This document shows positions 6,617-61,406 of a stretch of DNA of 64,000 nt, piece after piece; the first letter of the stretch is position 1, and each line of letters begins with the position of its first letter. Under the pieces are notes generated by a model, which was given only the letters and a program-made list of their open reading frames with translations, had not been told where the DNA came from and did not search any database. A program made the position numbers and the translations under genes. Origin of the DNA: a phage; sequence record PZ212788.1, one strand, 5' to 3'.

Positions 6617-6622
6617 ATGTTG

Positions 6623-7336: not shown

Positions 7337-7349
7337 TAAAGGTCTCCTT

Positions 7350-41956: not shown

Positions 41957-42381
41957 TGAGCACACACCCTCGTTTAGTGGATTGGCAAGAAAGATTGTGG
42001 AAAGTGTTTGACGAAGAGGCCACCATACCTTTTGAATGGGGATTCCACGATTGTTGCACCTTTGCAGCTAAGTGTGTTGATGCCCAATACGGAACAGATT
42101 TTCTTTCTAACTTTGAAGGAACGTATAAAACAGAGTTGGAAAGCAAGAGATGGTGCATGCTTCATTTCAAAACCACACATCTGCCCACTATTTTTGATTT
42201 CTTTATGACTCGACTGGACACTCCTAAACAGGTTCAGCGTGGTGATATTGTTATTTTCGAAGGCCTGAACGGGCTCACCGCTGGTGTGTTCTGGAACAAC
42301 CAGATTTGGGCGAAAGGGGATAAAGGGGTCTTTATGTTCGACATGAAAGATTCTATCGTTGTTGATGTCTGGAGGTATTAA
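41956..42381 (+). CDS. tail-associated protein with cysteine-peptidase-like motif (putative cell-wall hydrolase)
   Basis: FHDCCTF and GDIVIFEG segments resemble NlpC/P60/CHAP-type motifs; weak. Confidence 0.3.
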   Translation: MSTHPRLVDWQERLWKVFDEEATIPFEWGFHDCCTFAAKCVDAQYGTDFLSNFEGTYKTELESKRWCMLHFKTTHLPTIFDFFMTRLDTPKQVQRGDIVIFEGLNGLTAGVFWNNQIWAKGDKGVFMFDMKDSIVVDVWRY

Positions 42382-45300: not shown

Positions 45301-46220
45301 CTCAATGGGGCACAAAAATACAGGTAGACTCCGCAGGGAATAAATATGTTGCAGGTATCCAGTTGGGGATGGAAGGGTCTGGAGGCCAAGTTCAATCCTA
45401 CTTCATGGTTAGTGCAAACAATTTTGCGGTATACAACCCTGGAAATGGAACAGCAACCCTTGCTTTCGCAATCAAGAACAACCAAGCGTTCTTGAAAGAT
45501 GCTTTTATAGAGAACGGGACGATTTCATCTGCCAAGATCGCACAAGAAATTTCGTCAAACAACTACGATGGCAACGGGTACCATAAATACGGTTGGTATA
45601 TTAACAAGAACGGGCACGCCCAATTTATGGATGTATGGGTGAAAGGCAACATCAACGCCAGTTCTGGTAACTTCACAGGGGCAGTTAACGCCACTAGTGG
45701 TACCTTCCGTGGGGATGTTTATGCCAATAATGGTAGCTTTAGGGGCACCATAGATGCAACTGGAGGTACCTTCCGTGGACGTGTAGAAGCTTCCGTTATC
45801 CGTGCTAACCAGTTCGAAGGTGCAATCGTTGCACATAGGACCTACGGTGACTGTTCTCCAGTGTACAACTCGCAGCAAAGGGTTTGCCGTTGGAGGTGGA
45901 GATATGTGGACAACGTGCAAGGCCAAGGTAAGAACGTAACATTCTTCTTTAAACTGAATGGTACTCTTGCCAGCTCACAACTGAATGCATGGATAGCTGG
46001 TCATCAGATCCTTGCTGGCAAGAAGTATTTTAACGACAACAACGGCATGTGTGCGGTAGGGATAACAGGTCTGGGTGAACAAACTATAGACATTGTTATC
46101 GAGATTTACACACCGTGGTCAACGTCTAGCGTGACAGGTGTCACAATCTCCTGTCCTACTGTGATCGTTAGTCGTTCTAACTCAAGCTTCCAGGGACCTT
46201 GGAACGAGTCTCACGACTAA
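42381..46220 (+). CDS. large tail fibre/baseplate protein with FN3-like region, tandem coiled-coil repeats and Gly-rich C-terminal repeats
   Basis: 1279 aa; repeated NKATTDLLNKKTEALDEKL-type units; C-terminal repeated G(T/S)FRG. Confidence 0.5.
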   Translation: MPIAMIDNIVASARSSSYDWNASKAALADSLNTVTTRTLDKIFEGNKSYRSQQDRQKLLRSSAAPCSVVYGKTRTSGLLAFLEQDRDRTLHCAIVLANHPLEGIEDILIDGNPISSYGDLISWELHNDRKTSDPFMGTHCPSWSPDMIGRGISWLRASFRFDPNKFPFGLPNVTLVKVGKKCYDPRISKEVYTNNAALVILDYLRTYLKCPDETINWESFKEAANICDEAVRNADGTSERRYTINGEFDMDEAPASIMAEMLKACGADLSYVAGKYGLLVGAYYGPATMTLSEDCVCGEVKIYPEASFDKRSNTITGRFTSPTKGYSETDFPSVFVPEWIEKDGERKIIDIDYRFVTSPYQAQRVSAIFLRRARAGRIIEVTCNMRGFKFKPGSYVTMDLPSIGIVGQEMRVLEWEFTKKGGVKVKLRQDAKEWNDATGQLPDSGDVDIPISPSGVAQPQNFRYSVLQAGEVTHGVLAWDNVGTYAQNIVQVRKNGEIVWTAQTVEQFVRVEGLTKGSYTATVVATSYKGGVSPEAYCEFNIQAPEAPVSVEVKQGYFAITLIPHSRDLASVSTQYDFWTSGMTRLPDTSDATVTSKATRMGVGSTWTSEGLQNDKIYYWYIRTTNAFGSSQFVECAARCYTSIEDLMPQIDAEFKKTETYKELMSTLDSSIEEVENRVTELNRYMDGRVDEAFQQLGDRIGAVVTETTQKFEDVNGNITALDRKLVAAQNKFTNDLNTESGRLASLIETTNKATTDLLNKKTEALDEKLVAAKGELVEQIEGVESGYLAGDKTLDGKINTQRTELDASILSTNQATVDLLNRTSETLDQKISQTNATVSKNYTTLDGKITTAKTDLNTLIANTNKATTDLLNQKTSALSEQITSARGEISTNKQAIDALDGKLTSTKTALDATISDTNKATVDLINGTASAIRQELAVAKQEIIDDVGDVSEIRAAVATTSKAVTDLEGKVNAQWGTKIQVDSAGNKYVAGIQLGMEGSGGQVQSYFMVSANNFAVYNPGNGTATLAFAIKNNQAFLKDAFIENGTISSAKIAQEISSNNYDGNGYHKYGWYINKNGHAQFMDVWVKGNINASSGNFTGAVNATSGTFRGDVYANNGSFRGTIDATGGTFRGRVEASVIRANQFEGAIVAHRTYGDCSPVYNSQQRVCRWRWRYVDNVQGQGKNVTFFFKLNGTLASSQLNAWIAGHQILAGKKYFNDNNGMCAVGITGLGEQTIDIVIEIYTPWSTSSVTGVTISCPTVIVSRSNSSFQGPWNESHD
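44570..45200 (+). repeat. in-frame tandem repeats encoding coiled-coil heptad units
   Basis: At least four imperfect copies of about 120 nt (TNKATTDLLN.KT..L...). Confidence 0.5.
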
Positions 46221-46228
46221 CCTTTAAA

Positions 46229-46254
46229 GCCCCGCTTCGGCGGGGTTTATTTTT
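46229..46254 (+). terminator. rho-independent terminator
   Basis: GCCCCGC-TTCG-GCGGGG hairpin followed by TTTATTTTT. Confidence 0.65.
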
Positions 46255-46325: not shown

Positions 46326-47816
46326 GTGGCTAAGTATGGATTGACAGAGGCTGGTTTCGTTATACCAACCCTAAATGACCTAATCGTTGAAACTAAGCAA
46401 AGCCTGATCCGTGCTTTTGGCGAAAACTTCAACGTACAGAGTAACTCCGTTGCAGATAAGCTGACCACTATCTTCAACGAGCGAGAGTATCAACTTATTC
46501 TTATGGCAGCATCTGTATACGCATCACAGACGCTGTATGGGGCAGAAGGTATCTACCTAGATGAGCTTCTTGGAAGACAGGGTATTTACCGAAGAGGCCG
46601 TTCTAAATCATCAGGTACCTGCCAGTTGACAATCAACACAACTGTGCCGTACAATATGATTTATGATTCCAAAACTTATACGCTGGACAGTGGCAACTTT
46701 GTTCTTAGCAACGATGTGCAAGTAGCAGGGAATCTTATTGCTCACAGAATAAATGCTCCAGACCTAAGGATTGGGAAATACAACTTCCAAATTACCAACC
46801 AGACAGATGGAAGTATCAAAACAAAAAGTCTGGTTTTAACAGATAAGTCTCTGGACTCTTCTGATTTGCCAAGCTTTTACGGAGAGATTAAGCAATTCAT
46901 TGTCGATAATACAACCCTGTTGAACGACGATTTGATTCAGGTCGATATGTTGACAGGAACGTTGTGGATAGGGTACAATTCGAATCTTGATCAAGTTGGA
47001 CTTAATAGTAGAGTAGATTTCAGAGTATCCCCGATTGTAGGGGAAAGAACTATCACCCTGGATGTTATCGCTAACGAGGCTGGTGAGCTGTCAAGAGAGG
47101 CAGAAACCGTGACAACAATGTCACCTACTCCCAGTGGATTTATCAAGCTTACCAACCGAGAAAGATTCAACGAGGGCAGGGATGTTGAGAAAGATTCCGA
47201 GTATCGCTTAAGAGCTTCCAGCACAAAACAGTTAACATCGAAGGCTACCCGTCCTGCAATCCTTAGCGCTGTAAGCGAGGTGAAAGGTGTTGAGAAAGTG
47301 AGAGTGTTCTCCAACAACACTGATAAAACTGATGCTAAAGGTATACCTCCTTACAAGTTCCAAGTGGTTGTGTTTGGTGGTGCAACGGAGGACATTTGCC
47401 AAGCACTTTACCAAACTATAGCCTGTACGAACAGGACTTATGGTAATATTTTCTACGATGTCACTACATCTGACGGTCAAACTGAAAGAATTTATTACTC
47501 CAAGGCAAATACCTACCGCCTAGATGTAAGAATTACCTATTCCGGCGCTGCGCTTTCCACAACCGAAAAAGATGCCATTGTAGAGGCTCTTTTGCAGGTT
47601 GTTAACGGACTGGATGTTGCAGATACGTTGTACAATATCCAATTGGTCGGTGCTGCATCCGCTGCTGTGTCGATAGGTAGATTTAATAGACTGGTAATTC
47701 AAGTTAAACCAGTAGGAGCTTCTGATGAAGCTTACACTACAAACGATATTGTTGCGAACATGACCGAGGTGTTTGACCTCGACGAAAGTAATATAACTTT
47801 CCAACAAACTATTTAA
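46326..47816 (+). CDS. baseplate J-like protein (putative)
   Basis: GTG start with GGAGGAG RBS; N-terminus YGLTEAGFVIPTLNDLIVETKQSLIRAFGENF resembles baseplate J/gp6 family. Confidence 0.5.
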   Translation: MAKYGLTEAGFVIPTLNDLIVETKQSLIRAFGENFNVQSNSVADKLTTIFNEREYQLILMAASVYASQTLYGAEGIYLDELLGRQGIYRRGRSKSSGTCQLTINTTVPYNMIYDSKTYTLDSGNFVLSNDVQVAGNLIAHRINAPDLRIGKYNFQITNQTDGSIKTKSLVLTDKSLDSSDLPSFYGEIKQFIVDNTTLLNDDLIQVDMLTGTLWIGYNSNLDQVGLNSRVDFRVSPIVGERTITLDVIANEAGELSREAETVTTMSPTPSGFIKLTNRERFNEGRDVEKDSEYRLRASSTKQLTSKATRPAILSAVSEVKGVEKVRVFSNNTDKTDAKGIPPYKFQVVVFGGATEDICQALYQTIACTNRTYGNIFYDVTTSDGQTERIYYSKANTYRLDVRITYSGAALSTTEKDAIVEALLQVVNGLDVADTLYNIQLVGAASAAVSIGRFNRLVIQVKPVGASDEAYTTNDIVANMTEVFDLDESNITFQQTI

Positions 47817-47827: not shown

Positions 47828-48514
47828 ATGGCAGAGATTAAGTCGGATGTTAACCACATCCACACTCTGCCAGATTTTGTTCAGGGAGGTCTTGACTACC
47901 TGCCTGGAGATTTTCTGGCTGAGAAGGTTAATTTAGTCACATTCTTAACCGTATACCTTAAAAGGTTGGAGGATGTTGATAAGATGCTGGTAGGTTTGGC
48001 TGAAGGAAGATTGCTTAACAATGCCAGCGGAAGATACCTTGACGAAGTTGGTAATCAACTTGGTATTCTTAGGAATGGACTTTCAGATGCTGATTTTCGT
48101 GCCACACTAATTATTCAGCAGGCCGCAGCATCAAGGGGCGGGACTCGCGAAGATGTCATCTCCACCTTGCGACAATTGTTCGGAAGAGACAATTTCGATA
48201 CGTGGAAAGGAGACAACTTCAGGTTTGACATAAATATTAGAAAAACTTGCTTTGACATATTGCAGTCTATCGATCAGATCTTAGATATGCTACCATTGCC
48301 TTGTCATTTGCGTCTTACAGAATCGCAAGGGCAAGCTTTTGGTTTTGAAGGGGACTCTACAGCTCTTGGCTTCGGATCAGTATGGGAAGAAAACCAGTTT
48401 GGAGTTGGTGGGCTGGCTACTTTGCTGTATGTTCCTGACGTAAGACCTGATTGGGACACCACAACCATTTATTGTGAAAGTATTACAGTAAACGCAACTA
48501 GACAGGAGGGTTAA
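47828..48514 (+). CDS. baseplate/tail protein I-like (putative)
   Basis: Follows J-like gene; LDYLPGDF motif. Confidence 0.4.
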   Translation: MAEIKSDVNHIHTLPDFVQGGLDYLPGDFLAEKVNLVTFLTVYLKRLEDVDKMLVGLAEGRLLNNASGRYLDEVGNQLGILRNGLSDADFRATLIIQQAAASRGGTREDVISTLRQLFGRDNFDTWKGDNFRFDINIRKTCFDILQSIDQILDMLPLPCHLRLTESQGQAFGFEGDSTALGFGSVWEENQFGVGGLATLLYVPDVRPDWDTTTIYCESITVNATRQEG

Positions 48515-50586
48515 TGGCAACAGCTGTTTTTAAACCTTACCGTGATTACTCTACAATGGCTGCACGGTTTCATTACCGAACAGTTCAGGATACTGCCGTT
48601 CCTGGTAGGGATTATGATCATGTTGAGGGCGATGTAACTATCCCAGTTGGGGCAACCAGTATTGAGATCCCCGTGGAAATTGTTGACAAATTACCCAACA
48701 GGTTGCCAAGAAGCTTCTTTATGGAGTTTTCATCAAAATCTCAAGGGGTGATGATTGGAACACAAAGGGCGAAATGTACAATAGTTTCAGATGAGAATCT
48801 TGACAGGATATCTTGGGATACTGTTGAGGAGAGAATGTTTCACCCAAGATATTGGGTTACAACCACTCAGCAGACTGAAAGTACCTGTATTGTTGCAGAT
48901 AACAACTGTTGTATTAACCGTTTAGTGTCAAGAACATATGGAGGTATGGCTGGGTGCATTTGGGAAACAGTTGACAAGTATGACCATTTCGGTATTGGGT
49001 TTGATGATCACTATGAGATGAGAAACACCAAGCTTTGGTTCAGAATGTCAATAACCAATGCCAGCAACTTCTCCACCCCTGAAAAGATGATTATGACTGT
49101 AGACCTTGTTGATGGCACAATCATCTATGTTCCTTTAGCTCAATATGCTGTCAGCATCTCAGAGGATAAGAATGTTGCAGAGATTCATATTGATTTCGAG
49201 GACTGCGTCGGGATGGATCAGAACAACAACATGATGGGTGTTGATCCTCGACAGGTGAGAAGGATTTTAATACCGCTTATGCCTAAAGACTGGGTAAGTA
49301 ATAGCACAGACCCGAGAACGGAAAATGTAGAGTGTGAGTTGCGCCTAGATCTGCTCCAGCCAGACACAGGCTGGAAAATGATGCAACTTAACAATATTCA
49401 GGTTAAAGAGCACGACGTTGGGATCTGCACCGCATATGACGATATGTGGAACGTATCTCCTTTAAGGGTGTTGAACAATATCAAGCGTCTGGGCTATACC
49501 GGAACCATAAACCATTATGTTGGTATGAGTCATTATTATGACTACACATGGTCAGGAACCCAATGGTCTATAAACAGAACAGGGGCGCTAAACGCTGCAG
49601 CTTATAAATGGCATGATGATTTTATGTACAATGCCAAACGACATAACTTCGACGTTATGCAATCTGTAAGTTTTGAGCTTTTCAGCGATGCCTGCCCGTT
49701 GGAATGGACCCAAAGAGACTGGAACGATAACTACGCTAAAACAGGGTATACACCCTGTAGCTACCTCCTGTCTCCAACCATTGAAGAGGGTATGAATTTC
49801 CTTACTGCAGTATTTAAGAATTTTGCATCAGCCGCTATGAGAAACAACCTGCCAGTGATTATGCAGGTTGGTGAACCGTGGTGGTGGTACAATACCGATA
49901 CTCGTAGACCTTGTATTTATGATTACCCTACAAAGCAGGCGTTTTATGATGAGACAGGTGAGTATGCATTAGATATTGGGACTATTGACGATCCTAAAAC
50001 TGGCGGTGTTTACGACAAGTATGTAGCATTTTGTCGTGGTAAGCTTGGCGCTCGTATTGCGGCTATTTCAAAGGCAATAAAGGCACACGCTGCATCAGCT
50101 CAGATGACAGCTTTGCTGTTTTTCCCAACCATCATGGAAACCGAGCTTACGCAAAAGCTGAACCTTGCTGACCAATATAAAAAGGAAGCAGGTGCTCTTG
50201 ATTTCTTCTGCACCGAGTGCTACGATTGGGTGATGCAGGGAGGTATTGAAAAGGCAAAAGAGTCTGTAAACATACCTATCGTTAAGTTAGGTTGGCAACC
50301 GTCTGAAATACAATACCTTGCAGGGTTCGTTCCTAGTAAAGAGCTTGCTCCGGTATATGGCTACGACCCAACCAGGAATTACCAAGAATTTTTATGGAGA
50401 TGTATCTGCGGAAACATGGCAACCATAGAGTATAGATACCCTGAGGTAAAACAGTATGTGTGGGCATACCCGCAAGTAATGTCTGACAGCATCACTGTTA
50501 CAGCCAGAGATTCTACCGTGCTTCATATGGGGCAGGTTGCTCTGAAAGGGTATGTAGAAGATGTTGTCCCTCCAGACTTCTCATAA
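48514..50586 (+). CDS. tail fibre/receptor-binding protein with Calx-beta-like N-terminal segment
   Basis: DYDHVEGDVTIPVGATSIEIPVEIVD resembles Calx-beta motif; Trp-rich C-terminal domain. Confidence 0.4.
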   Translation: MATAVFKPYRDYSTMAARFHYRTVQDTAVPGRDYDHVEGDVTIPVGATSIEIPVEIVDKLPNRLPRSFFMEFSSKSQGVMIGTQRAKCTIVSDENLDRISWDTVEERMFHPRYWVTTTQQTESTCIVADNNCCINRLVSRTYGGMAGCIWETVDKYDHFGIGFDDHYEMRNTKLWFRMSITNASNFSTPEKMIMTVDLVDGTIIYVPLAQYAVSISEDKNVAEIHIDFEDCVGMDQNNNMMGVDPRQVRRILIPLMPKDWVSNSTDPRTENVECELRLDLLQPDTGWKMMQLNNIQVKEHDVGICTAYDDMWNVSPLRVLNNIKRLGYTGTINHYVGMSHYYDYTWSGTQWSINRTGALNAAAYKWHDDFMYNAKRHNFDVMQSVSFELFSDACPLEWTQRDWNDNYAKTGYTPCSYLLSPTIEEGMNFLTAVFKNFASAAMRNNLPVIMQVGEPWWWYNTDTRRPCIYDYPTKQAFYDETGEYALDIGTIDDPKTGGVYDKYVAFCRGKLGARIAAISKAIKAHAASAQMTALLFFPTIMETELTQKLNLADQYKKEAGALDFFCTECYDWVMQGGIEKAKESVNIPIVKLGWQPSEIQYLAGFVPSKELAPVYGYDPTRNYQEFLWRCICGNMATIEYRYPEVKQYVWAYPQVMSDSITVTARDSTVLHMGQVALKGYVEDVVPPDFS

Positions 50587-50598
50587 TCAGGAGATAAA

Positions 50599-51639
50599 AT
50601 GTCAAAACCTAGTTTTCCATTAGAGATTTGGGCAGAGGAGGATCAGGTTCTGCCTAACACCCACAGACAGAACAGGCTACGCCCGATTGATGATTTGTGG
50701 AGAAAAGGTTGGGATCTTGGTCAAAAGCCATCCTGTGAAGAACTTAACTATATTTTCAATATGCTCGGAACTTGGGCAAAATACATTGCTGACGAGCAGA
50801 TCCCCGCTCAAGAAGGCCGTTATCTGGTACGTGATAATAACTTGAGCGATCTTTTGAACATCCCTGTTGCCCGTAGAAACCTTGGGATTATCACTAAGGA
50901 AGAGGCAGACGCCAGGTATGTAAAAGTTACAGGTGATACAATGACAGGCCCCTTGGGGTTGCAACGTATCAACTTTAAAGCTGCCGAGACAGATAAGGCT
51001 TGGATAGAGACAACTATTGGCCCAGATAAGACAACTCTCGACTTTGGGTTAAGTGATAATACCGGGTCGTTTGATGATGGTGGTACATCTACAGTAGATG
51101 CGTTTCGTTGGAGATTCCAGCCAACTCAGCCGGATATTAATCCAGAGTTCACTTTGATGTACCTTAACGCGATCACGGCTAATCGTGCGCTGTTGAAAGT
51201 GGTAGGCAATGTTGAAGTTGTCGATAACATGAGGTGCAATAACCTTACTATCAGCAATACAGCAACATTCACCAACTGTAATGTGGCTAGTCAGTTGACG
51301 GCTGGGTCAGTATATGTTAATGGTGGTGCAAGTTGTGACAGTATGGTTGTAAGAAGCCAGCACTGTGTTGTCGGTAACAGAAATGTGGTGCGCTCCGTGA
51401 ATGGAGTGACGGCTAACGGTAACGGTGATGTAACGATCACTATCCCGCAGACAGGTGTGCAAGACATCAGAATCGGTGCAAGACTTGTGGACGGCGTTTC
51501 TGAATCTCCAATCCGCAACGGCTACGTTGTCACAGGCTGGCATTTCGGTGACAAAAAAGAGATGCGTGGTTCAACCTACTGGGCAGGACCTTTACAAAAA
51601 CTTGTAAATGGTCAATGGATCACTGTTAATTATGCATAG
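50599..51639 (+). CDS. tail fibre protein, paralog A
   Basis: Shares N-terminus and C-terminus QKLVNGQWIT with 52654..53697. Confidence 0.55.
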   Translation: MSKPSFPLEIWAEEDQVLPNTHRQNRLRPIDDLWRKGWDLGQKPSCEELNYIFNMLGTWAKYIADEQIPAQEGRYLVRDNNLSDLLNIPVARRNLGIITKEEADARYVKVTGDTMTGPLGLQRINFKAAETDKAWIETTIGPDKTTLDFGLSDNTGSFDDGGTSTVDAFRWRFQPTQPDINPEFTLMYLNAITANRALLKVVGNVEVVDNMRCNNLTISNTATFTNCNVASQLTAGSVYVNGGASCDSMVVRSQHCVVGNRNVVRSVNGVTANGNGDVTITIPQTGVQDIRIGARLVDGVSESPIRNGYVVTGWHFGDKKEMRGSTYWAGPLQKLVNGQWITVNYA

Positions 51640-51653
51640 ATCGGAGGACTAGC

Positions 51654-52238
51654 ATGAAAATACTTCAAGAGTTTAAACTTTACCAACCGGGATCTGGCGA
51701 ATACCACTCCAACAAGGAAACCAAGGAGCTGACCCCTCAAGAGGTCGAGGATTACACCGCATACACTGGGTATTTTTTACGTAATGATGATGGTGATTGG
51801 TATGTGCAGTCACGAACATTACGACAAGAAAATCCAGGGTGTATCTTCCTACTTGTTGACGAGAAGGGAATTCTTAAGACATCTACAGAAGAACCTGATG
51901 CCTTATGGCCTGCTCCAGGTCTTCGTGTGGTTATCGCCAAAAAAGAAGAGGTACCAGAAAACATTATGCTTCACCACGACGCTTTGCGTTTAGTTGGTGA
52001 TGAATTTGTCACAGACAATGAATTCTTTGTTCAACAGGCAGAGGGTGTCATAGAGACAGAACTTGCTTGGGCTACTGCTAGAATTGGTGCCTATCAAGAC
52101 ATGATTGACCTTGAATATGATCTTACTGATGACCAGAAACGTAACATCAGAGATTTGAAAATGTACAGGGTAAAACTTCTTGAAATAGATACATCTAAAG
52201 CCCCTGACATTTTCTTCCCGGAGCGACCTACCCTCTAA
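51654..52238 (+). CDS. tail fibre assembly protein (Tfa-like chaperone)
   Basis: C-terminal YRVKLLEIDTSKAPDIFFPERP matches conserved tail-fibre-assembly C-terminus. Confidence 0.55.
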   Translation: MKILQEFKLYQPGSGEYHSNKETKELTPQEVEDYTAYTGYFLRNDDGDWYVQSRTLRQENPGCIFLLVDEKGILKTSTEEPDALWPAPGLRVVIAKKEEVPENIMLHHDALRLVGDEFVTDNEFFVQQAEGVIETELAWATARIGAYQDMIDLEYDLTDDQKRNIRDLKMYRVKLLEIDTSKAPDIFFPERPTL

Positions 52239-52249
52239 GAGGAGGTGTT

Positions 52250-52564
52250 GTGGAGTTGGATTTGGCGGCATTGTACGGTATCTGCATGGGTACCGTTGTC
52301 CCGATCTGTGTATGGGCTTTCAACCAGTGGCACACCAAATGGAAAGGCATTTCCAAGAGGTTGGATGAGCTGGAGAAAGACCTCATCTTAGTGAAAAACA
52401 GTATGGTTACAAAAGATAGACTTGATTCCGTTATCGAGACTCGGTTAAGCAAGCTAGAGGCCGATATTAACGACCTTAAGCAGGATGTCAGGACAGATGT
52501 CTCCGGCATCCGAGCTGATGTACAAAAGATTTTGCACATGCTCGTAGAGCATAGTAAAAGGTAA
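52250..52564 (+). CDS. membrane-anchored coiled-coil protein
   Basis: GTG start with AAGAGGAGG RBS; N-terminal TM segment then heptad-repeat region. Confidence 0.4.
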   Translation: MELDLAALYGICMGTVVPICVWAFNQWHTKWKGISKRLDELEKDLILVKNSMVTKDRLDSVIETRLSKLEADINDLKQDVRTDVSGIRADVQKILHMLVEHSKR

Positions 52565-52573
52565 ACAAAGGTC

Positions 52574-52606
52574 AGAACGGAAAGGACTCCGTTCTTGCAT
52601 TTTGTT
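52574..52606 (+). terminator. hairpin terminator
   Basis: AGAACGG-loop-CCGTTCT followed by TTTTGTT. Confidence 0.4.
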
Positions 52607-52623
52607 CTCTAAAGTGTTAAAAT
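52595..52623 (+). promoter_or_regulatory. candidate promoter TTGCAT-N17-TAAAAT (extended -10 TGt)
   Basis: Motif spacing upstream of fibre paralog B. Confidence 0.4.
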
Positions 52624-52653
52624 AGTCCTAAGGAATTTTCTCAGGAGAACGTG

Positions 52654-53697
52654 ATGACTAAACCAGTTATCCCTCTTGATATTTGGGCCAATCAGGATGT
52701 TGTGCTTGAAAATACGGGAGAGTTGAATAAGTCTCAACCAAAAAAAGAAGAGAGATTGAAAGGTTGGGATATGACACAAAGAATGGCATGTGAAGTTGTT
52801 AACTTTGAACTTCACATGCTTTCTGCGTGGTTGAAGCATTTAACAGAAGATGTTGTCCCAGGATGGGATAATAGATTCTTAAAGGTCACTAATAATCTAG
52901 CAGACGTTCCAGACAAAGCTGCTGCACGTCAAGTTCTCAATGTATACTCACCTGAAGAAATGGACGATCTATATGTTGACAAGTCTGGAGACATAATGAC
53001 TCAGACTCAAACTTTAGGTCTCCAAAGAATCGAGTTTGCATCTGCGTCAACAGACAGTGCGGCAATATATACCACCATAACGCCAGACAAGACGACGATG
53101 GATTTCTGGATTATGGACAACATCGGTGGTGCTGACGGCACAGACCTTGATGATCCTTCTCACCAAATAGACGGGTTCCGTTGGAGATTTCAACCTTCTG
53201 GTGGGCAGCCTGTGTTTTCGGCTATGAAGCTCAATGCTATAACTGCCAACCGTGCAAGACTGGCTATCCAAGGAAATCTTGAATGCAACGATGCAAAAAG
53301 TTCCTCTGCAAATGCCAATGCGGTCACGATACCAAGAGCCACTGTTAACGGACAACAATCCTGCGGAAGCGCTCAAATAGGTGGAAGAGTTGATTGTAAC
53401 GATGAAACCGTTAGAGGCCAATATGCAACCGTTGGTGGAAGAAACGTGGTCCGCAGGGTAAACGGTAACAGCGCAGACGGTAGTGGTAACCTTACTGTCC
53501 CTATGCCCAGTAGAGGGGTTGACGATGTAAGGATAGCAAACCGTTTCAAAACCACCTACAGAGAGTCAAGAGTCTACCCTGGACATGTGATGTGCTCTGG
53601 TAACTACGCTTATAAACACCCTTATCAAGGTGATTACTGGACAGGTGCTATCCAAAAACTTGTAAACGGTCAATGGATCACTATATCTTATGCTTAA
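52654..53697 (+). CDS. tail fibre protein, paralog B
   Basis: AGGAG RBS; conserved termini with paralog A, divergent central region. Confidence 0.55.
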   Translation: MTKPVIPLDIWANQDVVLENTGELNKSQPKKEERLKGWDMTQRMACEVVNFELHMLSAWLKHLTEDVVPGWDNRFLKVTNNLADVPDKAAARQVLNVYSPEEMDDLYVDKSGDIMTQTQTLGLQRIEFASASTDSAAIYTTITPDKTTMDFWIMDNIGGADGTDLDDPSHQIDGFRWRFQPSGGQPVFSAMKLNAITANRARLAIQGNLECNDAKSSSANANAVTIPRATVNGQQSCGSAQIGGRVDCNDETVRGQYATVGGRNVVRRVNGNSADGSGNLTVPMPSRGVDDVRIANRFKTTYRESRVYPGHVMCSGNYAYKHPYQGDYWTGAIQKLVNGQWITISYA

Positions 53698-53708
53698 AAA
53701 GAGGGTAA

Positions 53709-53975
53709 ATGAAACTAACTCAGTTTTTATGGGGACTGGTTGCGGCATCTGATGACCCTACGAAAGTATCCCAATCTAAGCTATGGTCGAACATAGGCAT
53801 GGCGGTGATGACTGGGGTGTTTATTCATATGGGGTATAATGATACGCTTCCTGAATGGTATGCGTGGATATATGCACCTTCAGTAGCCTGCCCCCAGCTT
53901 ATTAGCAAATTCATCTCGCTCCGGTGGGGTTGCCAGCACCCTGACCACGTTAAAAACGAAGAGCAAAAAGCTTAA
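53709..53975 (+). CDS. small membrane protein, candidate holin
   Basis: 88 aa, two hydrophobic segments, charged C-terminus; no other holin-like ORF found near endolysin. Confidence 0.3.
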   Translation: MKLTQFLWGLVAASDDPTKVSQSKLWSNIGMAVMTGVFIHMGYNDTLPEWYAWIYAPSVACPQLISKFISLRWGCQHPDHVKNEEQKA

Positions 53976-53984
53976 GGAGAAATC

Positions 53985-55730
53985 ATGGCGCAAGACATGA
54001 CAAGCTTCGAGCAGGCGGTAGATCAAGTAATTGTTGATTCTGAACGTTTGCACTTGATTGTCAACGGTAACGCTGTGGATGAAGTTGTCGTAGAGGATGG
54101 GACCACTATCCCTACGGTACGAAAAGCCATGCTTGACACCCTTTATTTTAAAACGCCACCAATCCCTTGGGCGTATGGTGCATCCACAACAGTTTTTAAC
54201 CAGTTGTATGAGTTTAAAGGGGATACAGGCACTCAGTGGTGGTACGCCCCAGCAGCATCAAAATCTAACCCGGTTAGAATGCCAGCAGATCCTTCACAAT
54301 CTCCAAACTGGAGATTATACACCGACTCTGCAGTAATGGCAAAATACTACGCAAAACTTAACAGCCCAAGGTTCGAAGGTGACCCGCGAGTACCTACACC
54401 TCCAATGGACGACAAATCCGAGTCTATAGCAAACACAGAGTTTGTTGTTGACTATGTGGATAGCATATTTGAAGCCATGGAGGGAATGAAAGTTACTGTA
54501 GGGTCTTTGGTGGTAAAAGGTCTTACAGAACTTGCTAACACTATAGTTGGTGGCACACTCACCTTACATGGGCCTGTTAATGGAGCAGATTCTACTGCAC
54601 GCTTCAGGAACCTAATCCTCACGGCAAATACTTCTACACTTACTTTTGCGTGGAGTGATCCTAAGCATGCAGACTGGAGAAGCACAGAGCTGCAACCTCA
54701 TGAAGTGTCCACCCACAGGGTTATAGCTGACACTATAACTTCTGGGAAACCAGTGGCTAATAATAACGATGTGCATTTTGATGGTCTAGGTAATAACTTT
54801 TTTGACTACGTGTACATTCGTGGTAATGCCATGAAGGCAGCAACCGAACCGACATTGCAGGTAGATGGAACCACCAGGGTTAAGAACCTTGAGGTGACAG
54901 GCACTGTTACAGGGATAACCTACTCTGTCGATGGCACCATGATTTACCCTAGCTATATTGAAAGCACGGGGGACGCATTAATAAATGGTGATTTAGAAGT
55001 TGGCGGATCTGTAGTTATTCGAGGTACAGCCTCTATCCAAAACATAGCTCTGAATACCCTAAGAGTCAATGAGCGTGCAACTTTTGAAGGGGAAGGGCTT
55101 ACAGCCAACAAAGGTGTAATTACCGAGCTGACAACCACTACTTTAACTGCAACAACTGCAAACTCTGAAAACTGCAACGTTACCAGAAACTTGCAGGTAA
55201 ATGGAGATGTTAGTTTAAACGCAGCAGGGACGGGCACCACCTACCTTCACAACCTTGAAATATCCGGCACAGTGACTGGGTGGCTGCCAGACTTCTCTAA
55301 TGTCAACTTTGTTTGTAATGGCATTAACTCCAGTGGCAAGATAACCACCTCTCAAGAAATTGAGGCGGGTAAAACCATTACTGCCCCTACTTTCCACGCA
55401 GGAAAGGTAGATTTTGATTTAGAGGAGGTTGACGCGTCCAGTGGGACATGGACACCTAACGGGCAGGCCAGTATGTATGTTGTCCACGCGAAAGGGGATT
55501 TTACAATAGGACAATGGCCTGGTACATCAGCGGAAGATAAACCTTATCCATTCACTGCGGTTATCTATGTCATTCAGGATGCTGTAGGTCACAACGTGAC
55601 TTTGCACGATAAGTATGCTATCCTGTCGGCAACGCCTGTTATTAATAACAAGGCTAATAGTGTTACCTTGCTGCAATTAACATATTGTGGTGTTGGTGAT
55701 ATCGTAGACGTAGTAATTGCACAACGTTAA
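53985..55730 (+). CDS. tail fibre protein
   Basis: N-terminal FEGDPRVPTPP...SIANTEFV resembles conserved fibre collar motif of Stf/gpH-like fibres; beta-repeat middle. Confidence 0.6.
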   Translation: MAQDMTSFEQAVDQVIVDSERLHLIVNGNAVDEVVVEDGTTIPTVRKAMLDTLYFKTPPIPWAYGASTTVFNQLYEFKGDTGTQWWYAPAASKSNPVRMPADPSQSPNWRLYTDSAVMAKYYAKLNSPRFEGDPRVPTPPMDDKSESIANTEFVVDYVDSIFEAMEGMKVTVGSLVVKGLTELANTIVGGTLTLHGPVNGADSTARFRNLILTANTSTLTFAWSDPKHADWRSTELQPHEVSTHRVIADTITSGKPVANNNDVHFDGLGNNFFDYVYIRGNAMKAATEPTLQVDGTTRVKNLEVTGTVTGITYSVDGTMIYPSYIESTGDALINGDLEVGGSVVIRGTASIQNIALNTLRVNERATFEGEGLTANKGVITELTTTTLTATTANSENCNVTRNLQVNGDVSLNAAGTGTTYLHNLEISGTVTGWLPDFSNVNFVCNGINSSGKITTSQEIEAGKTITAPTFHAGKVDFDLEEVDASSGTWTPNGQASMYVVHAKGDFTIGQWPGTSAEDKPYPFTAVIYVIQDAVGHNVTLHDKYAILSATPVINNKANSVTLLQLTYCGVGDIVDVVIAQR

Positions 55731-55738
55731 TATATCTA

Positions 55739-55764
55739 ACCGCTCCTGACGGGGCGGTTTTCTT
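55739..55764 (+). terminator. rho-independent terminator
   Basis: ACCGCTCC-TGAC-GGGGCGGT hairpin followed by TTTCTT. Confidence 0.55.
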
Positions 55765-55778
55765 ATCTGGAGAACACA

Positions 55779-58700
55779 ATGCTTCCAATCCCTTTGCTAA
55801 AACTTGGTCGTCATTTCCTCGATAAGAGGGGTGGAATTAAGGAACTTGCTGTTCTGTCATACCCAATAGACAACAGTGATGGTACAAGCAACACAGTATC
55901 CTATGTAAATAGCTTAGCTATACTTTTTGATGATGGTCAGCTTAATATTACTGGCTATAATAGGTTCGGAGAGTGTCGGACTGGAGATCTTGATACAATA
56001 AACTATCCTAATGAGGCAGCTTGGAACGTAGACCATGTTTGGAGAGCTGACCGTGCATTTGTAATCCGCACATTCGATAATAAATTTTTCTATATTGGTT
56101 GCACAGCTGGTCTTATCGGATCGGAGGCAGCAGGTGGAAACGATGTTTGTGTCAGAGAGTGGACACCTTTGCCGGAACAGATCGTAACAGGGTTGCATTT
56201 GGACACCCATCCTGAGAGACTTGTTGAAGTAATGGGTGGCGTAAACAATACCGTGTGGGTAATTGCTGCACCAGAGGCTGATGGTATGCTTCACCTGTAC
56301 GGCTCTGGCAATAATACTTACGGCTCTCTTCATGTTGACAAAAGTCAACACGCTACTCCAGTTAAGATCGGTGAAACATCTGAAAGTCCAGAGACAGGTC
56401 CTTGGAAAAATCCAAGAATTAATTGTGAAGTTCATGACAACTCGGTTATTTTTGGTGGTCCTAACGGATTCTGGATTGCAGGTTACGACTTTCTGAGAAA
56501 TAACAGTAGAAACGACCTTGTTTGGCCTCCTGTGCAGATTACTCGTAACGATTTGAGGGGCATTCCTGCAGATGAGGAGTGGAAAGGGTTTATGTGTGGT
56601 CCTAACGGGGCAGTAATTGCTACACAGAGGATGCATAGACCCGATGACCAGCAGCTTGTTAACGTATTTTATGGTCAAAACATTTGGGGAGATGATACAT
56701 GGCGGGAACTGAATATCACCTACACCCATGAGGTAATGATGGCTCGTGGGTACGGCACAAGTGGCATTTTCTTCAATAATGGCACCAAGCAGTATCGTGG
56801 ATTCTCTCGCAACTTGTGTAATGATATTGGTGCACAATCTGCAAACAATAGTCCTAGGTCCGATTTTATCCACTATCAAGCTCTTGCTACAGCTAAATAT
56901 GTTGAGCAACGCCTGCCAGTTAGCTGGACAGAGAGTGTTTATTTCCAAGGCATCCATAGAGAAGGTTTCTTAGGGACCTTTACTGTTGTTAATGGTAAAC
57001 TTTGGTGGTCAGGCATCCCAAGGGGAAGTTTTGCAGGCTCTAACAACCTGTTTGGAGGCAGACTTAATAGCCAGGGGTTCACAGAGGTTCCTGAGAATTG
57101 GTATAAAAATGTCCCGGTAGACAGTTGGGGTGTTGAGGATATTTTCGACGTTAACGGTGTTAGCAGCGTTAGCAATATTTACATTGGTGACACGGTCAAG
57201 ATGAAGTTGAAGCCTCAGCCAGAGGGGGCTACGTTCATTATTGACAAGATTGAACTGGTAAATGCTGCAGGTACGGTTGTTACAGATGCAAATTACCAAT
57301 TCTCCACCAACTGGAACCACGGAGGGGCCAATGAAGTTGTTGTCACCCAGTATAACAGAAATGTTAACAGACGTGGCCTGTACTCTGTAAAAATAACCTA
57401 TCATGACAAGCATGGCACAGGCAGAACCCATACGACAAGGACTTTGAACTGGAACACCATAGTTCCTGCGTACCCGTCTGATGGTAAATGGCATACTGTC
57501 GGTAGAAACAAACAGTTCCATGTCAACGATACTGTATACTTTGGGTTGAATGCGGCTCAGCCTGCAGTAGAAGGGGATACATCGTATATGGTCAGACTCC
57601 ATAGAATGGATGCCGGATCAGTAACTTATGATGTTACCCAAGAGATTTATAATCAGCGACGAAATACCTATGATAACTTGGTGCAGACACAGGCCTTATG
57701 GGAGTTCAACCCAAACGGCAGAGGTGGTAAAATGTTGCAGGTCAATGAACAAAACGGGACATCGTTAACTGTTCACGAACACCCAAACCCTTGGCCTGAT
57801 CCTGGAAAACCTAACTCTGGTGCTCGTACACTGAAAATTGTCAGCCATGATGTAGGATATTTCGGAATACGCTGGGAAGCTACAGTAAGATATGCCGACG
57901 GGACAACAAACAACATAGGGATCACTCTTGGTGGCACTAGTGAGGATAACTCACTGAAAATTGCCTACACCCCTAGAGGCATCTCTATTGACAATATGGA
58001 TGTTGTTCGCAACGGTTACGGCGATGTGAATGTCAAAGTTACTCTTGGCGAACATCTTGGTGGGGAAAGGATCATCATGTATGCCTTTGATCATGACCCT
58101 CGCACCAACGGAACCTATGCAGACCAGGCGTGGAGCTACCTGATAAGCGCACCTGAGCCAAATACTAAAGAGTTCTACTACGGTATGAAGCGAGATGTGT
58201 GCAAGAAAACAGGAACACATGACTGGATTGCTATCTGCGTTAAAGATGAGCGCACAGCTTGGGACGAGCCTGTTAACAGATGGTTCATAGGGATTCCTAC
58301 CAGAAGTGATAAATACGTTGAAGACTATATCGTGTGTATGGGCGGCACCAACCTCAACATGTGTTGGAACGAGGATGCTGCAAACAAATACTCTGACTAT
58401 GACTATATGAGGGACTACTCTTGCAATCAATGGTTTAACCAATCCGGATATGCTAATCGACAGTCAAGAGTAAATCCTGCAATCTTTACAGATACGCAGG
58501 TTTTCTTGTTGAAACAGGCAAACGAGGTTCAGACCTTCAAGAATAACTATGACCCTAATAAGTGGTTCTACAACTGTTACGGGGCATACTTTTGGGGACC
58601 TGCTGAACTGCCTGACAGCGGCTCTTGCTTCGAGGCTGCAACCTACGGCAGCGACTATATCATGGGACAGGTCAAGAAGTACAAGATGATCCCAGGGCCT

Positions 58701-61406
58701 GAAACTTTAGGTAACGCTGTTGACCCATACATAAATTTCGCAGCTTTGCATGCGAATATGGATGGTGCAAGGTATCCGTTCAACGTTCCAGTCGCCAATG
58801 GGTACAGACGTGTCGTGATGATTATCAAATGCGATCTGATCGGAAAGCAAGTTCTTGCAGAAAACGGAACATCCACACATCCTTTTGAAGTTGCTCTGCA
58901 CTACCAGTTTGCAGACTCACCATATGCGGGAGATAAAAGAATCTCCGACACAGACTCTAAGCGCTGTAAGAAAGTTTTACTTGGAGCCGGGTGGTGGTGG
59001 TACGAGTTTGATTTAACAGATAAGTTCACAGATGATACCAAAACTCTCACAGGTATCCGTCTGGACCTTGGTGAGAACATGCACAAAGCTGTTTGTGATG
59101 GCACCTACGGTGATCCTACAGTATACTTGAAGTATGTCTCTCTTGAGCATCCAGAGGATGCCGTAATCGGTCCTAAACTGAAATTGTTCGGCTCATGGAT
59201 TGCCAAGGATAGAGTAGGAATGGGTAAGAAAGTGAGAGGATTCCTGATAGACGCAGGGACAGAGGACATGCTGGTTAATGCAGTGTGGCCTACGCTAGAA
59301 GGCACTGCCTACAACAATGCAGCTAGGTCTATAAATTGGTTCAACATTCACAGAGCTATGTGGACCACTAACTGCTACTTGTGGAGAGAGCTTAACGATC
59401 AGGCCTTTGGCTTTAGTGACGGCAGAAGGATGGCGATCATTTGCTGGACAACACTGCAAAGATGTTATGACCATGACTACGAGATTGGCGGTAGAGCATG
59501 GAAAGATATCAGAGATAGAATCATATACAATTTTGCAGATGATAATGGTGGCGGGGCATATAACTTTGGCACAAGCCGACTTATCCACTTGAACGGATCT
59601 TTAGCCTACAAGAAAGAAGGTTACTCTGGGTCCATGATCGAGTGGGGCCTGGTAAAAGATGCTCGTATATTGATGGGCCAGCAACTTGCTGCCGCAATAG
59701 GACCTAGCGCAGTGCAGTCTGTTAAACCAGCGTGGTTCGATATTCCATTGTGGTCACCTGGAACACCAGGAACTGCTGCAATCAACCCTACCACTGGGGA
59801 TCTAGAAATCTCATGGGAGGACTTGAAGCAGGTCGGTGGTTGGGATAAAACAGGGTATCAGGTTCAGTGGTGGAGGCCTGATGGATCTTTAGCCGCTGAT
59901 GAGTTTGTTAAGGACAATTTCTACACTATGTCTTCTGCAAAAGCACAGCAATTGTTCGGTCAGGCCACTCCGTCAACGATCACCATGTCTATGTGCTGTA
60001 AAGACAACAGGACTGGAGCTCTGGGACCGAGGGTTGCTAAGGTTTTCTCAGGTATTAAATGGAATCTTCCTGTTCAAAGTGTTTCATGGAAGCAAATAGG
60101 TGATAACAAGCTGCTGGTTACCCCTGCCTGTCAGTTCAACGCAACTCTTAACGTTGATCCTGCTGTTGCGGCAAACTCAGCTAAAGCTTCTGACTTCTCT
60201 GTGTCTAACACTGCTATGGCAGATGTGAGGAAGATTGACACACTGAACGCCAGAATTACCTGTAAAAACACTTATGGCACATTCCAAATCATCAACAACT
60301 TCACAGATGCTGATTCTAAGGTAGTAAGGACAGCAAGCCAGACTCTGAGTTTAGGGACTCTGGCCTATGCGGCCCTGATCACCGAGCAGTCGGCAACACT
60401 CCAAGGAGGTGGTGTAGGCAAGTCCATTGCAACACCTGTGTGGAAGCCAAATGAGTGGGTTGTGTTTGATTTGACTGTGGACTTCTCCAGCGATAATAAC
60501 TGGACATGGGTAAGGAATTGTTTGTCACAATTGATGGGAGGTCCAAGCTCCGTTAGTGATAGTCACGACTCTACTGACCCGAGTGTGTTCCAGGTAGGTA
60601 AAACTCACCCAGAGACTGGAGAAACGTTGCCTGACAGGAAGTATGCGTTGGTTTGCATCTCTTACGGGAAGGCAGATGTCACCTTCTCGGGGACACACAC
60701 TTATAACGGAACATACAATTTCTCAAGGAAGTATAGTCTCAAAGCAGGGAACATTATAGACGAGGTTGGTGCACTGTATAATCCTGGAAACGGCATAGGG
60801 ATTGTGGGTGGTCAACTGCAGATGCAGGAACCTTCTATTACCCCTTCCAACGTATCTGGGATTAGAAAGACTTGGGAAAGTAGCAATACCAACATTGCAA
60901 CAGTGGATGCTACCACAGGGCTGGTAACATTTAAAGCTACTGGGAATGTCACCATAAAGTTTGTAGTTACAGATGATGCAGGCCGCAAAACGTCCTCAAC
61001 ATCATTCACTGTCAAACAGATGGCACCTCAGTGGTTTATTTGGGAAGGAAATCCTCTTGACGGGGCCTACCCTAGACCTGCAGGAACGTCTAATATGAGG
61101 GTCTTTACCGGTCCGGTAATGAACAATCCGACCACAACCACCAACCCTACATTTTTTGGTGCTTACATACCTGAAATTATTGGCCTACCAAGGAACCAGA
61201 TACAACTGCTTTTCGGAGCAGGTGTTGATGGTCTAGCCACTTTTGGGTACAGTGACAACATTGATGCAGCCAGAAGCTCTGGTTGGATTGGATTTAAGTT
61301 TCAGTGGAACCCTGGTGGTAGAACATTAGGTATTGCAAGCATAGGTGTTATGCTACCTGGTAACCAGCAATACCATCTCGAAGCTTATACAAACTTCCCT
61401 AGTTAA
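55779..61406 (+). CDS. giant structural protein (1875 aa), candidate adhesin/fibre with Ig-like domain
   Basis: Single uninterrupted ORF with GGAGAA RBS; Ig-like (Big_2-type) segment near C-terminus. Confidence 0.5.
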   Translation: MLPIPLLKLGRHFLDKRGGIKELAVLSYPIDNSDGTSNTVSYVNSLAILFDDGQLNITGYNRFGECRTGDLDTINYPNEAAWNVDHVWRADRAFVIRTFDNKFFYIGCTAGLIGSEAAGGNDVCVREWTPLPEQIVTGLHLDTHPERLVEVMGGVNNTVWVIAAPEADGMLHLYGSGNNTYGSLHVDKSQHATPVKIGETSESPETGPWKNPRINCEVHDNSVIFGGPNGFWIAGYDFLRNNSRNDLVWPPVQITRNDLRGIPADEEWKGFMCGPNGAVIATQRMHRPDDQQLVNVFYGQNIWGDDTWRELNITYTHEVMMARGYGTSGIFFNNGTKQYRGFSRNLCNDIGAQSANNSPRSDFIHYQALATAKYVEQRLPVSWTESVYFQGIHREGFLGTFTVVNGKLWWSGIPRGSFAGSNNLFGGRLNSQGFTEVPENWYKNVPVDSWGVEDIFDVNGVSSVSNIYIGDTVKMKLKPQPEGATFIIDKIELVNAAGTVVTDANYQFSTNWNHGGANEVVVTQYNRNVNRRGLYSVKITYHDKHGTGRTHTTRTLNWNTIVPAYPSDGKWHTVGRNKQFHVNDTVYFGLNAAQPAVEGDTSYMVRLHRMDAGSVTYDVTQEIYNQRRNTYDNLVQTQALWEFNPNGRGGKMLQVNEQNGTSLTVHEHPNPWPDPGKPNSGARTLKIVSHDVGYFGIRWEATVRYADGTTNNIGITLGGTSEDNSLKIAYTPRGISIDNMDVVRNGYGDVNVKVTLGEHLGGERIIMYAFDHDPRTNGTYADQAWSYLISAPEPNTKEFYYGMKRDVCKKTGTHDWIAICVKDERTAWDEPVNRWFIGIPTRSDKYVEDYIVCMGGTNLNMCWNEDAANKYSDYDYMRDYSCNQWFNQSGYANRQSRVNPAIFTDTQVFLLKQANEVQTFKNNYDPNKWFYNCYGAYFWGPAELPDSGSCFEAATYGSDYIMGQVKKYKMIPGPETLGNAVDPYINFAALHANMDGARYPFNVPVANGYRRVVMIIKCDLIGKQVLAENGTSTHPFEVALHYQFADSPYAGDKRISDTDSKRCKKVLLGAGWWWYEFDLTDKFTDDTKTLTGIRLDLGENMHKAVCDGTYGDPTVYLKYVSLEHPEDAVIGPKLKLFGSWIAKDRVGMGKKVRGFLIDAGTEDMLVNAVWPTLEGTAYNNAARSINWFNIHRAMWTTNCYLWRELNDQAFGFSDGRRMAIICWTTLQRCYDHDYEIGGRAWKDIRDRIIYNFADDNGGGAYNFGTSRLIHLNGSLAYKKEGYSGSMIEWGLVKDARILMGQQLAAAIGPSAVQSVKPAWFDIPLWSPGTPGTAAINPTTGDLEISWEDLKQVGGWDKTGYQVQWWRPDGSLAADEFVKDNFYTMSSAKAQQLFGQATPSTITMSMCCKDNRTGALGPRVAKVFSGIKWNLPVQSVSWKQIGDNKLLVTPACQFNATLNVDPAVAANSAKASDFSVSNTAMADVRKIDTLNARITCKNTYGTFQIINNFTDADSKVVRTASQTLSLGTLAYAALITEQSATLQGGGVGKSIATPVWKPNEWVVFDLTVDFSSDNNWTWVRNCLSQLMGGPSSVSDSHDSTDPSVFQVGKTHPETGETLPDRKYALVCISYGKADVTFSGTHTYNGTYNFSRKYSLKAGNIIDEVGALYNPGNGIGIVGGQLQMQEPSITPSNVSGIRKTWESSNTNIATVDATTGLVTFKATGNVTIKFVVTDDAGRKTSSTSFTVKQMAPQWFIWEGNPLDGAYPRPAGTSNMRVFTGPVMNNPTTTTNPTFFGAYIPEIIGLPRNQIQLLFGAGVDGLATFGYSDNIDAARSSGWIGFKFQWNPGGRTLGIASIGVMLPGNQQYHLEAYTNFPS

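Follow-up and report, generated by a model that had tools for sequence, protein, structure and literature searches.

Are two similar tail fibre genes that lie close together in a phage genome spare parts for changing host range, or are they components that the virion keeps? The question is raised by a locus at positions 50,599 to 53,975 of a phage sequence of 64,000 nucleotides (record PZ212788.1), which we call the window. The locus holds two open reading frames (ORFs) on the + strand, named fibA (50599-51639, 346 amino acids, ortholog of gp33 of phage rV5) and fibB (52654-53697, 347 amino acids, ortholog of rV5 gp30). A preliminary description of this DNA took them for exchangeable host-range cassettes at a likely hotspot for recombination. 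The analysis reported here makes it highly likely that fibA and fibB are a fixed pair of paralogous short tail fibres of Vequintavirus, which is kept by purifying selection, and that host-range variation resides in the large lateral fibres.

The source of the window is a Vequintavirus, an rV5-like myovirus of E. coli. The window is ~98% identical to phage DrSchubert (Bas50), and the 12-kb stretch around the fibre pair has 97-98% DNA identity with more than 100 complete Vequintavirus genomes. For rV5 and the BASEL Vequintavirus isolates, the fibre pair, its chaperone, their presence in the virion and the missing allelic variation are already published. Mass spectrometry found gp30, gp32 and gp33 in the virion proteome of rV5, in which gp30 and gp33, each similar to short tail fibres, have 42.3% identity (Kropinski et al. 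2013, PMC3606486). Maffei et al. (2021, PMC8594841) reported two short tail fibre paralogs without allelic variation, with only the three largest lateral fibre genes being variable; in their account, paralogs and chaperone have homologs in the one short-fibre locus of phi92-like phages and, ultimately, in Mu GpS/GpU. The present locus agrees with rV5 in the lengths of gp33, gp30 and gp32 (346, 347 and 194 amino acids), in gene order, in identity (at least 95%, with fibB at 90-95% in two records) and in a paralogy of 42-43%. There is no substantive difference; the window represents another isolate or assembly of the genus.

fibA and fibB are paralogs over their full length

Both ORFs were found as first described, and both match the PHROG 4465 'tail fiber protein' profile from end to end (phrog_4465; fibA 1.8e-171, with residues 1-346 on profile positions 1-342; fibB 7.5e-166). 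The ATG at 52654 was taken as the start of fibB, since conservation in rV5 does not extend to the GTG at 52651. BLASTP of one protein against the other gave 153/356 identities (43%, E=1e-95) over the full length. The two genes are real paralogs with a similarity far beyond chance, and the claim that tail fibre genes had been duplicated holds; the similarity spans the whole length and is not a matter of low-complexity stretches.

The similarity is full-length but patchy. Identity between fibA and fibB amounts to 40% in residues 1-70 and 38% in residues 71-118, rises to 59% in residues 119-200 and falls to 23% in residues 201-250; it is 52% in residues 251-290 and 44% in residues 291-346. In 20-residue sliding windows it peaks at 65-70% around residues 119-139. 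Conserved termini with divergent centres, as originally proposed, are not what the alignment gives: the best block is central (119-200), and the N-terminus ranks with the parts of lower similarity. The terminal peptides quoted as shared are indeed present at both ends; residues 1-70, however, are identical at just 40% of positions, and C-terminal identity is limited to QKLVNGQWIT and the final YA. That the centre is the most similar part also speaks against cassettes in which conserved ends act as recombination substrates for a swapping of centres, be it from phage to phage or from one of the two loci to the other.

Both genes are fixed within Vequintavirus

For comparison with related phages, fibA and fibB were searched with tblastn against 50,697 phage records, among them ~117 Vequintavirus records. 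For fibA, 101 records had an identity of at least 99% and 15 one of 95-99%, and the next best match was below 60%. For fibB the identity was at least 99% in 10 records, 95-99% in 105 and 90-95% in two, followed again by values below 60%. The number of matching places per record is consistent with two copies throughout Vequintavirus and a single copy in all other genera. fibA and fibB are both present, in constant order, in all of the ~117 Vequintavirus records, and gene order and lengths are constant in 11 relatives picked to span the genus. No chimera, loss, gain, allelic replacement or swapped allele of fibA or fibB was seen among these ~117 genomes, in agreement with the published absence of allelic variation (Maffei et al. 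2021, PMC8594841).

Codon alignments of 12 Vequintavirus genomes, which also served for all diversity values given here, revealed substantial synonymous diversity (pS 0.12-0.21) and very low non-synonymous diversity (pN). The ratio pN/pS was 0.024 for fibA and 0.069 for fibB; it was 0.040 for the gene of the tail fibre assembly chaperone (Tfa) that follows fibA, and 0.034 and 0.017 for two small neighbouring genes encoding proteins of 104 and 88 amino acids. fibA and fibB are under strong purifying selection. Exchangeable host-range cassettes are contradicted by two genes that are fixed in ~117 genomes, stay in identity bands of at least 90% and have pN/pS values of 0.02-0.07, and the supposed recombination hotspot is a cold spot within the genus.

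Nucleotide diversity (pi) was unevenly distributed along the locus. A trough at 51860-52350, extending over the 3' two-thirds of the Tfa gene and into the beginning of the 104-amino-acid gene, had values of 0.006-0.02, compared with 0.05-0.09 in the fibre bodies. The first ~90 nucleotides of fibA had a pi of 0.002, and the 3' ends of both fibre genes were also unusually invariant, even at synonymous sites.

Where alleles do vary in the fibre region, it is in the large lateral fibre genes and not in fibA/fibB. DrSchubert, with a fibA (annotated 'short tail fiber protein') of 100% identity, has just 83% identity in the gene for a 1279-amino-acid fibre (42381-46220). Many relatives gave no megablast alignment across the 1279-amino-acid gene or across the 3' part of a gene for 1875 amino acids (55779-61406). 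The discovery value of the fibA/fibB locus, with its main features already published, is small, and its practical worth is negative knowledge for the engineering of rV5-like therapeutic phages: attempts to alter their host range should aim at the variable large lateral fibres and not at the fibA/fibB locus.

The DNA itself offers little substrate for exchange. We looked for near-identical flanking DNA long enough for homologous exchange and found none; the longest repeat was 62 nucleotides at 82% identity and the longest exact identity 15 nucleotides, and DNA in common of this length does not suffice for efficient homologous exchange between fibA and fibB. A Mu-like invertible segment was not found either. 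The sole inverted repeat in 50000-56000 is a 19-nucleotide pair with 79% identity, which is at chance level, and both genes lie on the + strand. Unlike Mu, which has an invertible G segment with alternative S/S' tips, this phage has two complete genes in the same orientation.

At deep distances the picture is different, and here the idea of exchange has some evidence in its favour. Residues 287-344 of fibA, the tip, are 59% identical to fibres of unrelated ~52-kb myoviruses of Salmonella and E. coli, which is mosaicism over deep distances. Furthermore, the N-terminal part of the protein is common to fibres of phiTE, Aeromonas and phAPEC8-type phages that have other distal parts. Within Vequintavirus, however, the uniformity of the locus largely refutes the exchangeable-cassette reading, and we consider it very improbable as an explanation of the pair.

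The repeat at the 3' ends is old

The strongest DNA similarity between the two genes is at their 3' ends. A repeat search recovered two copies of one family on the + strand, of which copy 1 (51577-51638) encodes YWAGPLQKLVNGQWITVNYA and copy 2 (53635-53696) encodes YWTGAIQKLVNGQWITISYA. The 3' DNA had been called nearly identical. This is correct for a core of 30 nucleotides with one mismatch, which includes no exact run longer than the 15 nucleotides mentioned above; the 62-nucleotide repeat as a whole, however, is just 82% identical, and the DNA beyond the stop codons of fibA and fibB is unrelated.

The use of codons in this region could be taken as a trace of exchange. Among the last 15 identical degenerate residues common to fibA and fibB, 12 have the same codon, compared with 35% gene-wide; the chance of the observed matches is ~2e-4 for that run, before correction for scanning the gene. 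Recent gene conversion of the 30-nucleotide ends was considered and rejected, since the ortholog in phage Av-05 has most of the same codons. As this ortholog shares the codons of the motif in part, the DNA identity was treated as old and constrained and not as recent. The C-terminal motif occurs also in fibres of Av-05, Seunavirus, phi92-like phages, phiTE and Mu; it is therefore a structural feature of the family and not a recombination junction.

A wedge-docking joint, a Mu-like tip and one chaperone

Profile searches of the PDB connect the N-termini of both proteins with the short tail fibre of phiTE. Residues 1-108 of fibA match residues 1-111 of this fibre (9cuy_c) with E=1.4e-19, and residues 1-79 of fibB match 9cuy with E=3.7e-8. 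A family profile, built from both paralogs and their orthologs, found 9cuy with 3.4e-28 and the tail fibre of Mu (5yvq) with 1e-9. In phiTE, residues 3-92 form a globular trimer joint that is bound to wedge protein 1 (PMC11972413). The homology of the N-terminal ~110 residues (1e-19 for fibA, 4e-8 for fibB) is where the likeness with phiTE is found; the phiTE fibre has 554 amino acids with a coiled coil and Ig-like distal domains, unlike fibA/fibB, and phiTE is flagellotropic.

A second relative is gp147 of phi92, which was identified as fibre III and consists of six trimers attached under the C-terminal domain of a wedge protein; functions in stable adsorption and in the triggering of contraction have been proposed for it (PMC13450770). 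The genes of gp147 and of the fibre of PaulScherrer (Bas60) resemble the present locus in lying directly downstream of wedge genes and in being followed by Tfa and a protein of ~110 amino acids, and the N-terminal joint and the C-terminal motif are common to all of them. The gp147 fibre points downward from its attachment on the wedge. It differs from fibA/fibB in being single-copy, in an overall identity of 25-28% and in another central shaft, and the 88-amino-acid gene is missing there.

At the other end of the protein, residues 286-343 of fibA match the tip of the Mu tail fibre S (5yvq_A, residues 440-501) with E=1.7e-6. fibB is linked to the Mu gpS tip only indirectly, via its alignment with fibA in residues 291-346. 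The system of Mu gpS and gpU (TfaMu, PDB 5yvq) is like fibA also in having a Caudo_TAP chaperone gene directly downstream, and its receptor is a glucose of the core of the lipopolysaccharide (LPS). It is unlike the present pair in that the tip of fibB is not detectably Mu-like and that the N-terminal parts are unrelated.

A Tfa-like chaperone after the first fibre was part of the preliminary description, and this is confirmed. The Tfa gene (51654-52238, + strand, 194 amino acids, ortholog of rV5 gp32) matches Pfam Caudo_TAP (PF02413) with 9e-12 in residues 121-192 and phrog_136 with 2e-36, and is annotated as 'tail fiber chaperone' in Bas50. It stands immediately 3' of fibA only; fibB is followed by the 88-amino-acid gene, and a second Tfa after fibB was found neither in the ORF list nor with Pfam. 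Tfa proteins are described as attaching to the fibre tip with a variable N-terminal domain and as driving trimerisation with a C-terminal helical domain that is conserved (PMC9608196). The diversity of the Tfa gene, with a variable 5' third and an almost invariant remainder, agrees with these published domain roles.

T4 gp12 offers a functional analogy, since this fibre is bound to the baseplate and has the LPS core as its terminal receptor, and an HHpred similarity to it has been reported (Kropinski 2013, PMC3606486). Our PDB profile searches with fibA, fibB and the family profile gave no significant match to gp12. T4 also differs from the present phage in having one gp12 gene, a gp57A chaperone and a fibre that is folded under the baseplate.

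On these grounds the following picture can be drawn. The virion would carry trimeric short fibres in two sets, which dock on the wedge via their N-terminal joints; by homology with the phiTE fibre and phi92 gp147, the N-terminal ~90-110 residues of each trimer are predicted to be the globular docking joint. The single Tfa would help to fold at least fibA. The C-terminus with QKLVNGQWIT may represent a family-wide structural motif of a Mu gpS-like tip, which, judged by its homologs, would be folded with the help of Tfa. The distal ends of the fibres are expected, from the same homologies, to bind the terminal receptor in the conserved LPS core. Binding and movement of the fibres may then help to trigger the rearrangement of the baseplate and so commit the phage to contraction, as proposed for related fibres. 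For the rV5-like phage LL12, the terminal receptor is the first glucose (Glc I) in the outer core of LPS, and the fibA/fibB locus probably recognises a conserved sugar of the LPS core.

fibB is an old duplicate in the place of another gene

The history of the pair was traced in other genera and in uncultured relatives. The single-copy orthologs of other genera are 46-51% identical to fibA and 37-43% to fibB; fibA is thus closer to them than to fibB (44% identity). For the N-terminal 70 residues, the values against other genera are 59-66% for fibA and 41-47% for fibB. In residues 119-200, neither paralog has a closer relative than the other. Of the two copies, fibA is the conservative one, and fibB evolves faster.

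In PaulScherrer, a phi92-like phage, the wedge genes are directly followed by one short tail fibre, a chaperone and a 113-amino-acid protein. Avunavirus, Seunavirus and Mydovirus have one fibre, then Tfa, a 104-amino-acid protein, a polytopic membrane protein of 157 amino acids, a protein of ~88 amino acids and a homolog of the 581-amino-acid fibre that lies downstream of fibB in the window; the genomes with this single-fibre order were Av-05, GAP31, GEC_vB_MG, KPP-1 and NINP13076. The 157-amino-acid gene (phrog_7451, Pfam Phage_phiTE_239) is at 6949-7422 in the Av-05 locus (L013) and has the same position in the loci L014-L017 and L021. It has no counterpart in the window, where its slot is occupied by fibB. 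fibA, Tfa and the 104-amino-acid protein are the ancestral short-fibre module, which all Vequintavirinae and phi92-like phages have downstream of their baseplate wedge genes, and fibB is an old lineage-specific duplicate at the position of the 157-amino-acid membrane-protein gene.

A search of a large protein collection yielded two uncultured lineages that have kept the two-paralog layout. At the DNA level the first (L018/L019) is ~76% identical to known Vequintavirus; compared with the proteins of the window, identity is 88% for fibA and 78% for fibB, in line with the neighbours at 78-91%. The second (L020) is a 135-kb Logan contig from SRR24653873, which gave no megablast match in the phage collection. 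Its fibres are encoded at 3913-4953 and 6001-7065, and identity to the window is 73% for fibA, 49% for fibB, 44% for Tfa and 77% for the wedge protein. Since the layout is present in both, the duplication predates these splits, and fibB and Tfa change fastest. The duplication is dated no further than older than the L020 split. A 118-amino-acid gene replaces the 88-amino-acid gene in L020.

The tips of the two L020 paralogs are unexpectedly similar. Their last 57 residues are 91% identical (52/57), compared with 33-62% in the rest, which is compatible with past gene conversion and in this respect with exchange between the two loci. However, the same codon is used at just 25 of 48 identical degenerate residues, so that about half of the synonymous positions differ and any conversion was not recent. 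Two explanations fit: the original fibA-type tip was retained in both copies, or the copies were made alike by an old conversion. In the window lineage the fibB tip is now 42-44% identical to the fibA tip.

Compared with the published account, these additions are small and are put forward as hypotheses: fibB sits in the slot of the 157-amino-acid gene, fibB evolves faster and has a diverged joint, and uncultured sister lineages keep two paralogs.

Transcription and role of fibB

The spacer of 89 nucleotides between the 104-amino-acid gene and fibB contains a terminator-like hairpin followed by a T-rich tract (52574-52595, + strand, from a terminator scan) and a promoter-like motif. The stem of the hairpin is kept in 12 of the 12 aligned Vequintavirus genomes; changes are confined to the loop or lengthen the stem. 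The motif, TGTTAAAATA (52615-52624, + strand, 30 nucleotides upstream of fibB), is invariant in the same genomes and matches the late-promoter motif TggTAaAAtA of rV5 (Kropinski 2013, PMC3606486). The pattern TGKTAAAATA occurs five times in the window, at 23098, 26620, 40773, 46284 and 52615, all on the + strand, against 0.46 expected; the copy at 46284 is located directly after a strong terminator (46227-46248) and before a wedge gene. Because the next strong terminator after fibB is only at 55738, fibB and the 581-amino-acid fibre gene appear to be co-transcribed. As far as can be read from these signals, fibB probably begins its own late transcription unit with the 88- and 581-amino-acid genes.

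The signals before fibB would permit a different dosage of the two fibres, and this is one reason to ask whether the paralogs occupy the virion alternatively. Both might compete for one and the same set of six wedge sites, or trimers might be mixed, and the result would be mosaic virions or a population that hedges between two LPS-core chemotypes. The N-termini of fibA and fibB belong to the same family of docking joints, phi92-like phages have one such set of six gp147 trimers, and Kropinski et al. (2013, PMC3606486) suggested that two LPS chemotypes may be recognised. However, the joint of fibB, at 40-47% identity to fibA and to the single-copy orthologs, fits a different docking surface better, and an identity of 40% in the trimerising N-terminal region would make heterotrimers unlikely. 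The presence of both proteins in the virion proteome fits either model. On balance we regard alternative occupancy as quite unlikely.

A further possibility is that fibB no longer binds a receptor and has become a structural adaptor or brace between the baseplate and another, lateral fibre. This would be consistent with a tip without detectable similarity to Mu gpS, with the lack of a chaperone gene of its own and with the apparent co-transcription with the downstream 581-amino-acid fibre gene; in phiTE, furthermore, the long fibre contacts the short fibre (PMC11972413). In contrast, the tip is the most conserved part of fibB between lineages (94% identity to L018 compared with 60-82% elsewhere in fibB), and fibB keeps the C-terminal motif of the family and aligns with the fibA tip with a single one-residue gap. 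Conservation of the tip fits a ligand- or chaperone-binding tip at least equally well. We attach hardly any credence to an adaptor role.

A more specific version of the fixed-pair reading is that fibB is a neofunctionalised duplicate. After replacing the 157-amino-acid gene it would be expressed from its own late promoter and would dock with its joint at a second site of the baseplate, so that the virion has two full sets of fibres; its tip would have started as a copy of the fibA/Mu type, which both L020 paralogs would still show, would have diverged towards a second LPS-core structure and would still need the single Tfa. This scenario is possible but we propose it only tentatively.

Several results weigh against the fixed pair of short fibres as we describe it. 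A profile made from fibB only had no match to 5yvq at E values up to 10. The fibB joint is more diverged, and its docking site and its ligand may differ from the picture based on homology. In a neighbour-joining tree, fibA and fibB were sisters with 48% bootstrap support, and three regions of the protein gave conflicting signals. AlphaFold2 monomer models, each from an alignment of 10 sequences, were unusable, with a mean predicted local distance difference test score (pLDDT) of 32.7 for fibB and 37.3 for fibA. No baseplate structure of Vequintavirus sensu stricto was found among the published structures searched, and we found no published test of which paralog, gp30 or gp33, binds LPS Glc I.

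Neighbouring genes

The gene order given in the preliminary description, fibA, Tfa, the 104-amino-acid gene, fibB and the 88-amino-acid gene, was recovered as stated. It corresponds to gp33-gp32-gp31-gp30-gp29 of rV5, with equal order and lengths in rV5 and 10 other genomes. In DrSchubert the wider region consists, in order, of a baseplate protein, a putative tail terminator, a lateral tail fibre with glycosidase/deacetylase domains, a short tail fibre, the chaperone, a hypothetical protein, the second short tail fibre, another hypothetical protein, a lateral tail fibre and a very large lateral fibre with an intimin domain; the rV5 counterparts are gp36, gp35, gp34, gp33, gp32, gp31, gp30, gp29, gp28 and gp27.

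The 104-amino-acid protein (52250-52564, + strand, ortholog of rV5 gp31, phrog_5345 1.5e-48) has a single N-terminal hydrophobic helix at residues 3-24 and a charged, helical remainder; for the coiled coil that the preliminary description gave it, Pfam yielded sub-threshold matches only. It is conserved downstream of Tfa across Vequintavirinae and in phi92-like phages, and is 32-33% identical to the 104-amino-acid proteins of Av-05, GAP31 and KPP-1. The 88-amino-acid protein (53709-53975, + strand, ortholog of rV5 gp29, phrog_1322 2.7e-32) is annotated as 'membrane protein' and is 51% identical to its homologs in the same three phages, in which it follows the 157-amino-acid membrane protein. 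Two transmembrane segments had been assigned to it. They are not established, because its two weakly hydrophobic segments reach maxima of only 1.05 and 1.0 in a 19-residue Kyte-Doolittle scan, for which the usual cut-off is 1.6; the protein may be membrane-associated instead of being a classical two-pass protein. The idea that the 104- and 88-amino-acid proteins are fibre-specific accessory factors was rejected. Both genes are located together downstream of a single fibre in other genera, and they are therefore neighbours in an older arrangement and not partners of fibA/fibB. Membership in a lysis cassette or a part in superinfection exclusion was also considered for the 104-, 157- and 88-amino-acid proteins, and nothing was found that spoke for or against it.

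Between the wedge genes (46326-47816 and 47828-48514) and fibA is a gene for a 690-amino-acid protein (48514-50586). Besides a Calx-beta domain it has two domains known from the N4-type non-contractile tail sheath protein, the N-terminal and the TIM-barrel one (Pfam PF23844/PF23845, 4e-80). Recent literature proposes that in these myoviruses the N4 glycan receptor (NGR) is bound by homologs of this protein, and in phi92-like and Seunavirus genomes the homolog is located upstream of the wedge genes.

Finally, ~20 GenBank records (MG065639-MG065674) that are labelled 'Campylobacter phage', with Campylobacter jejuni as host, are 94-98% identical to E. coli Vequintavirus in this region; these host labels look doubtful.

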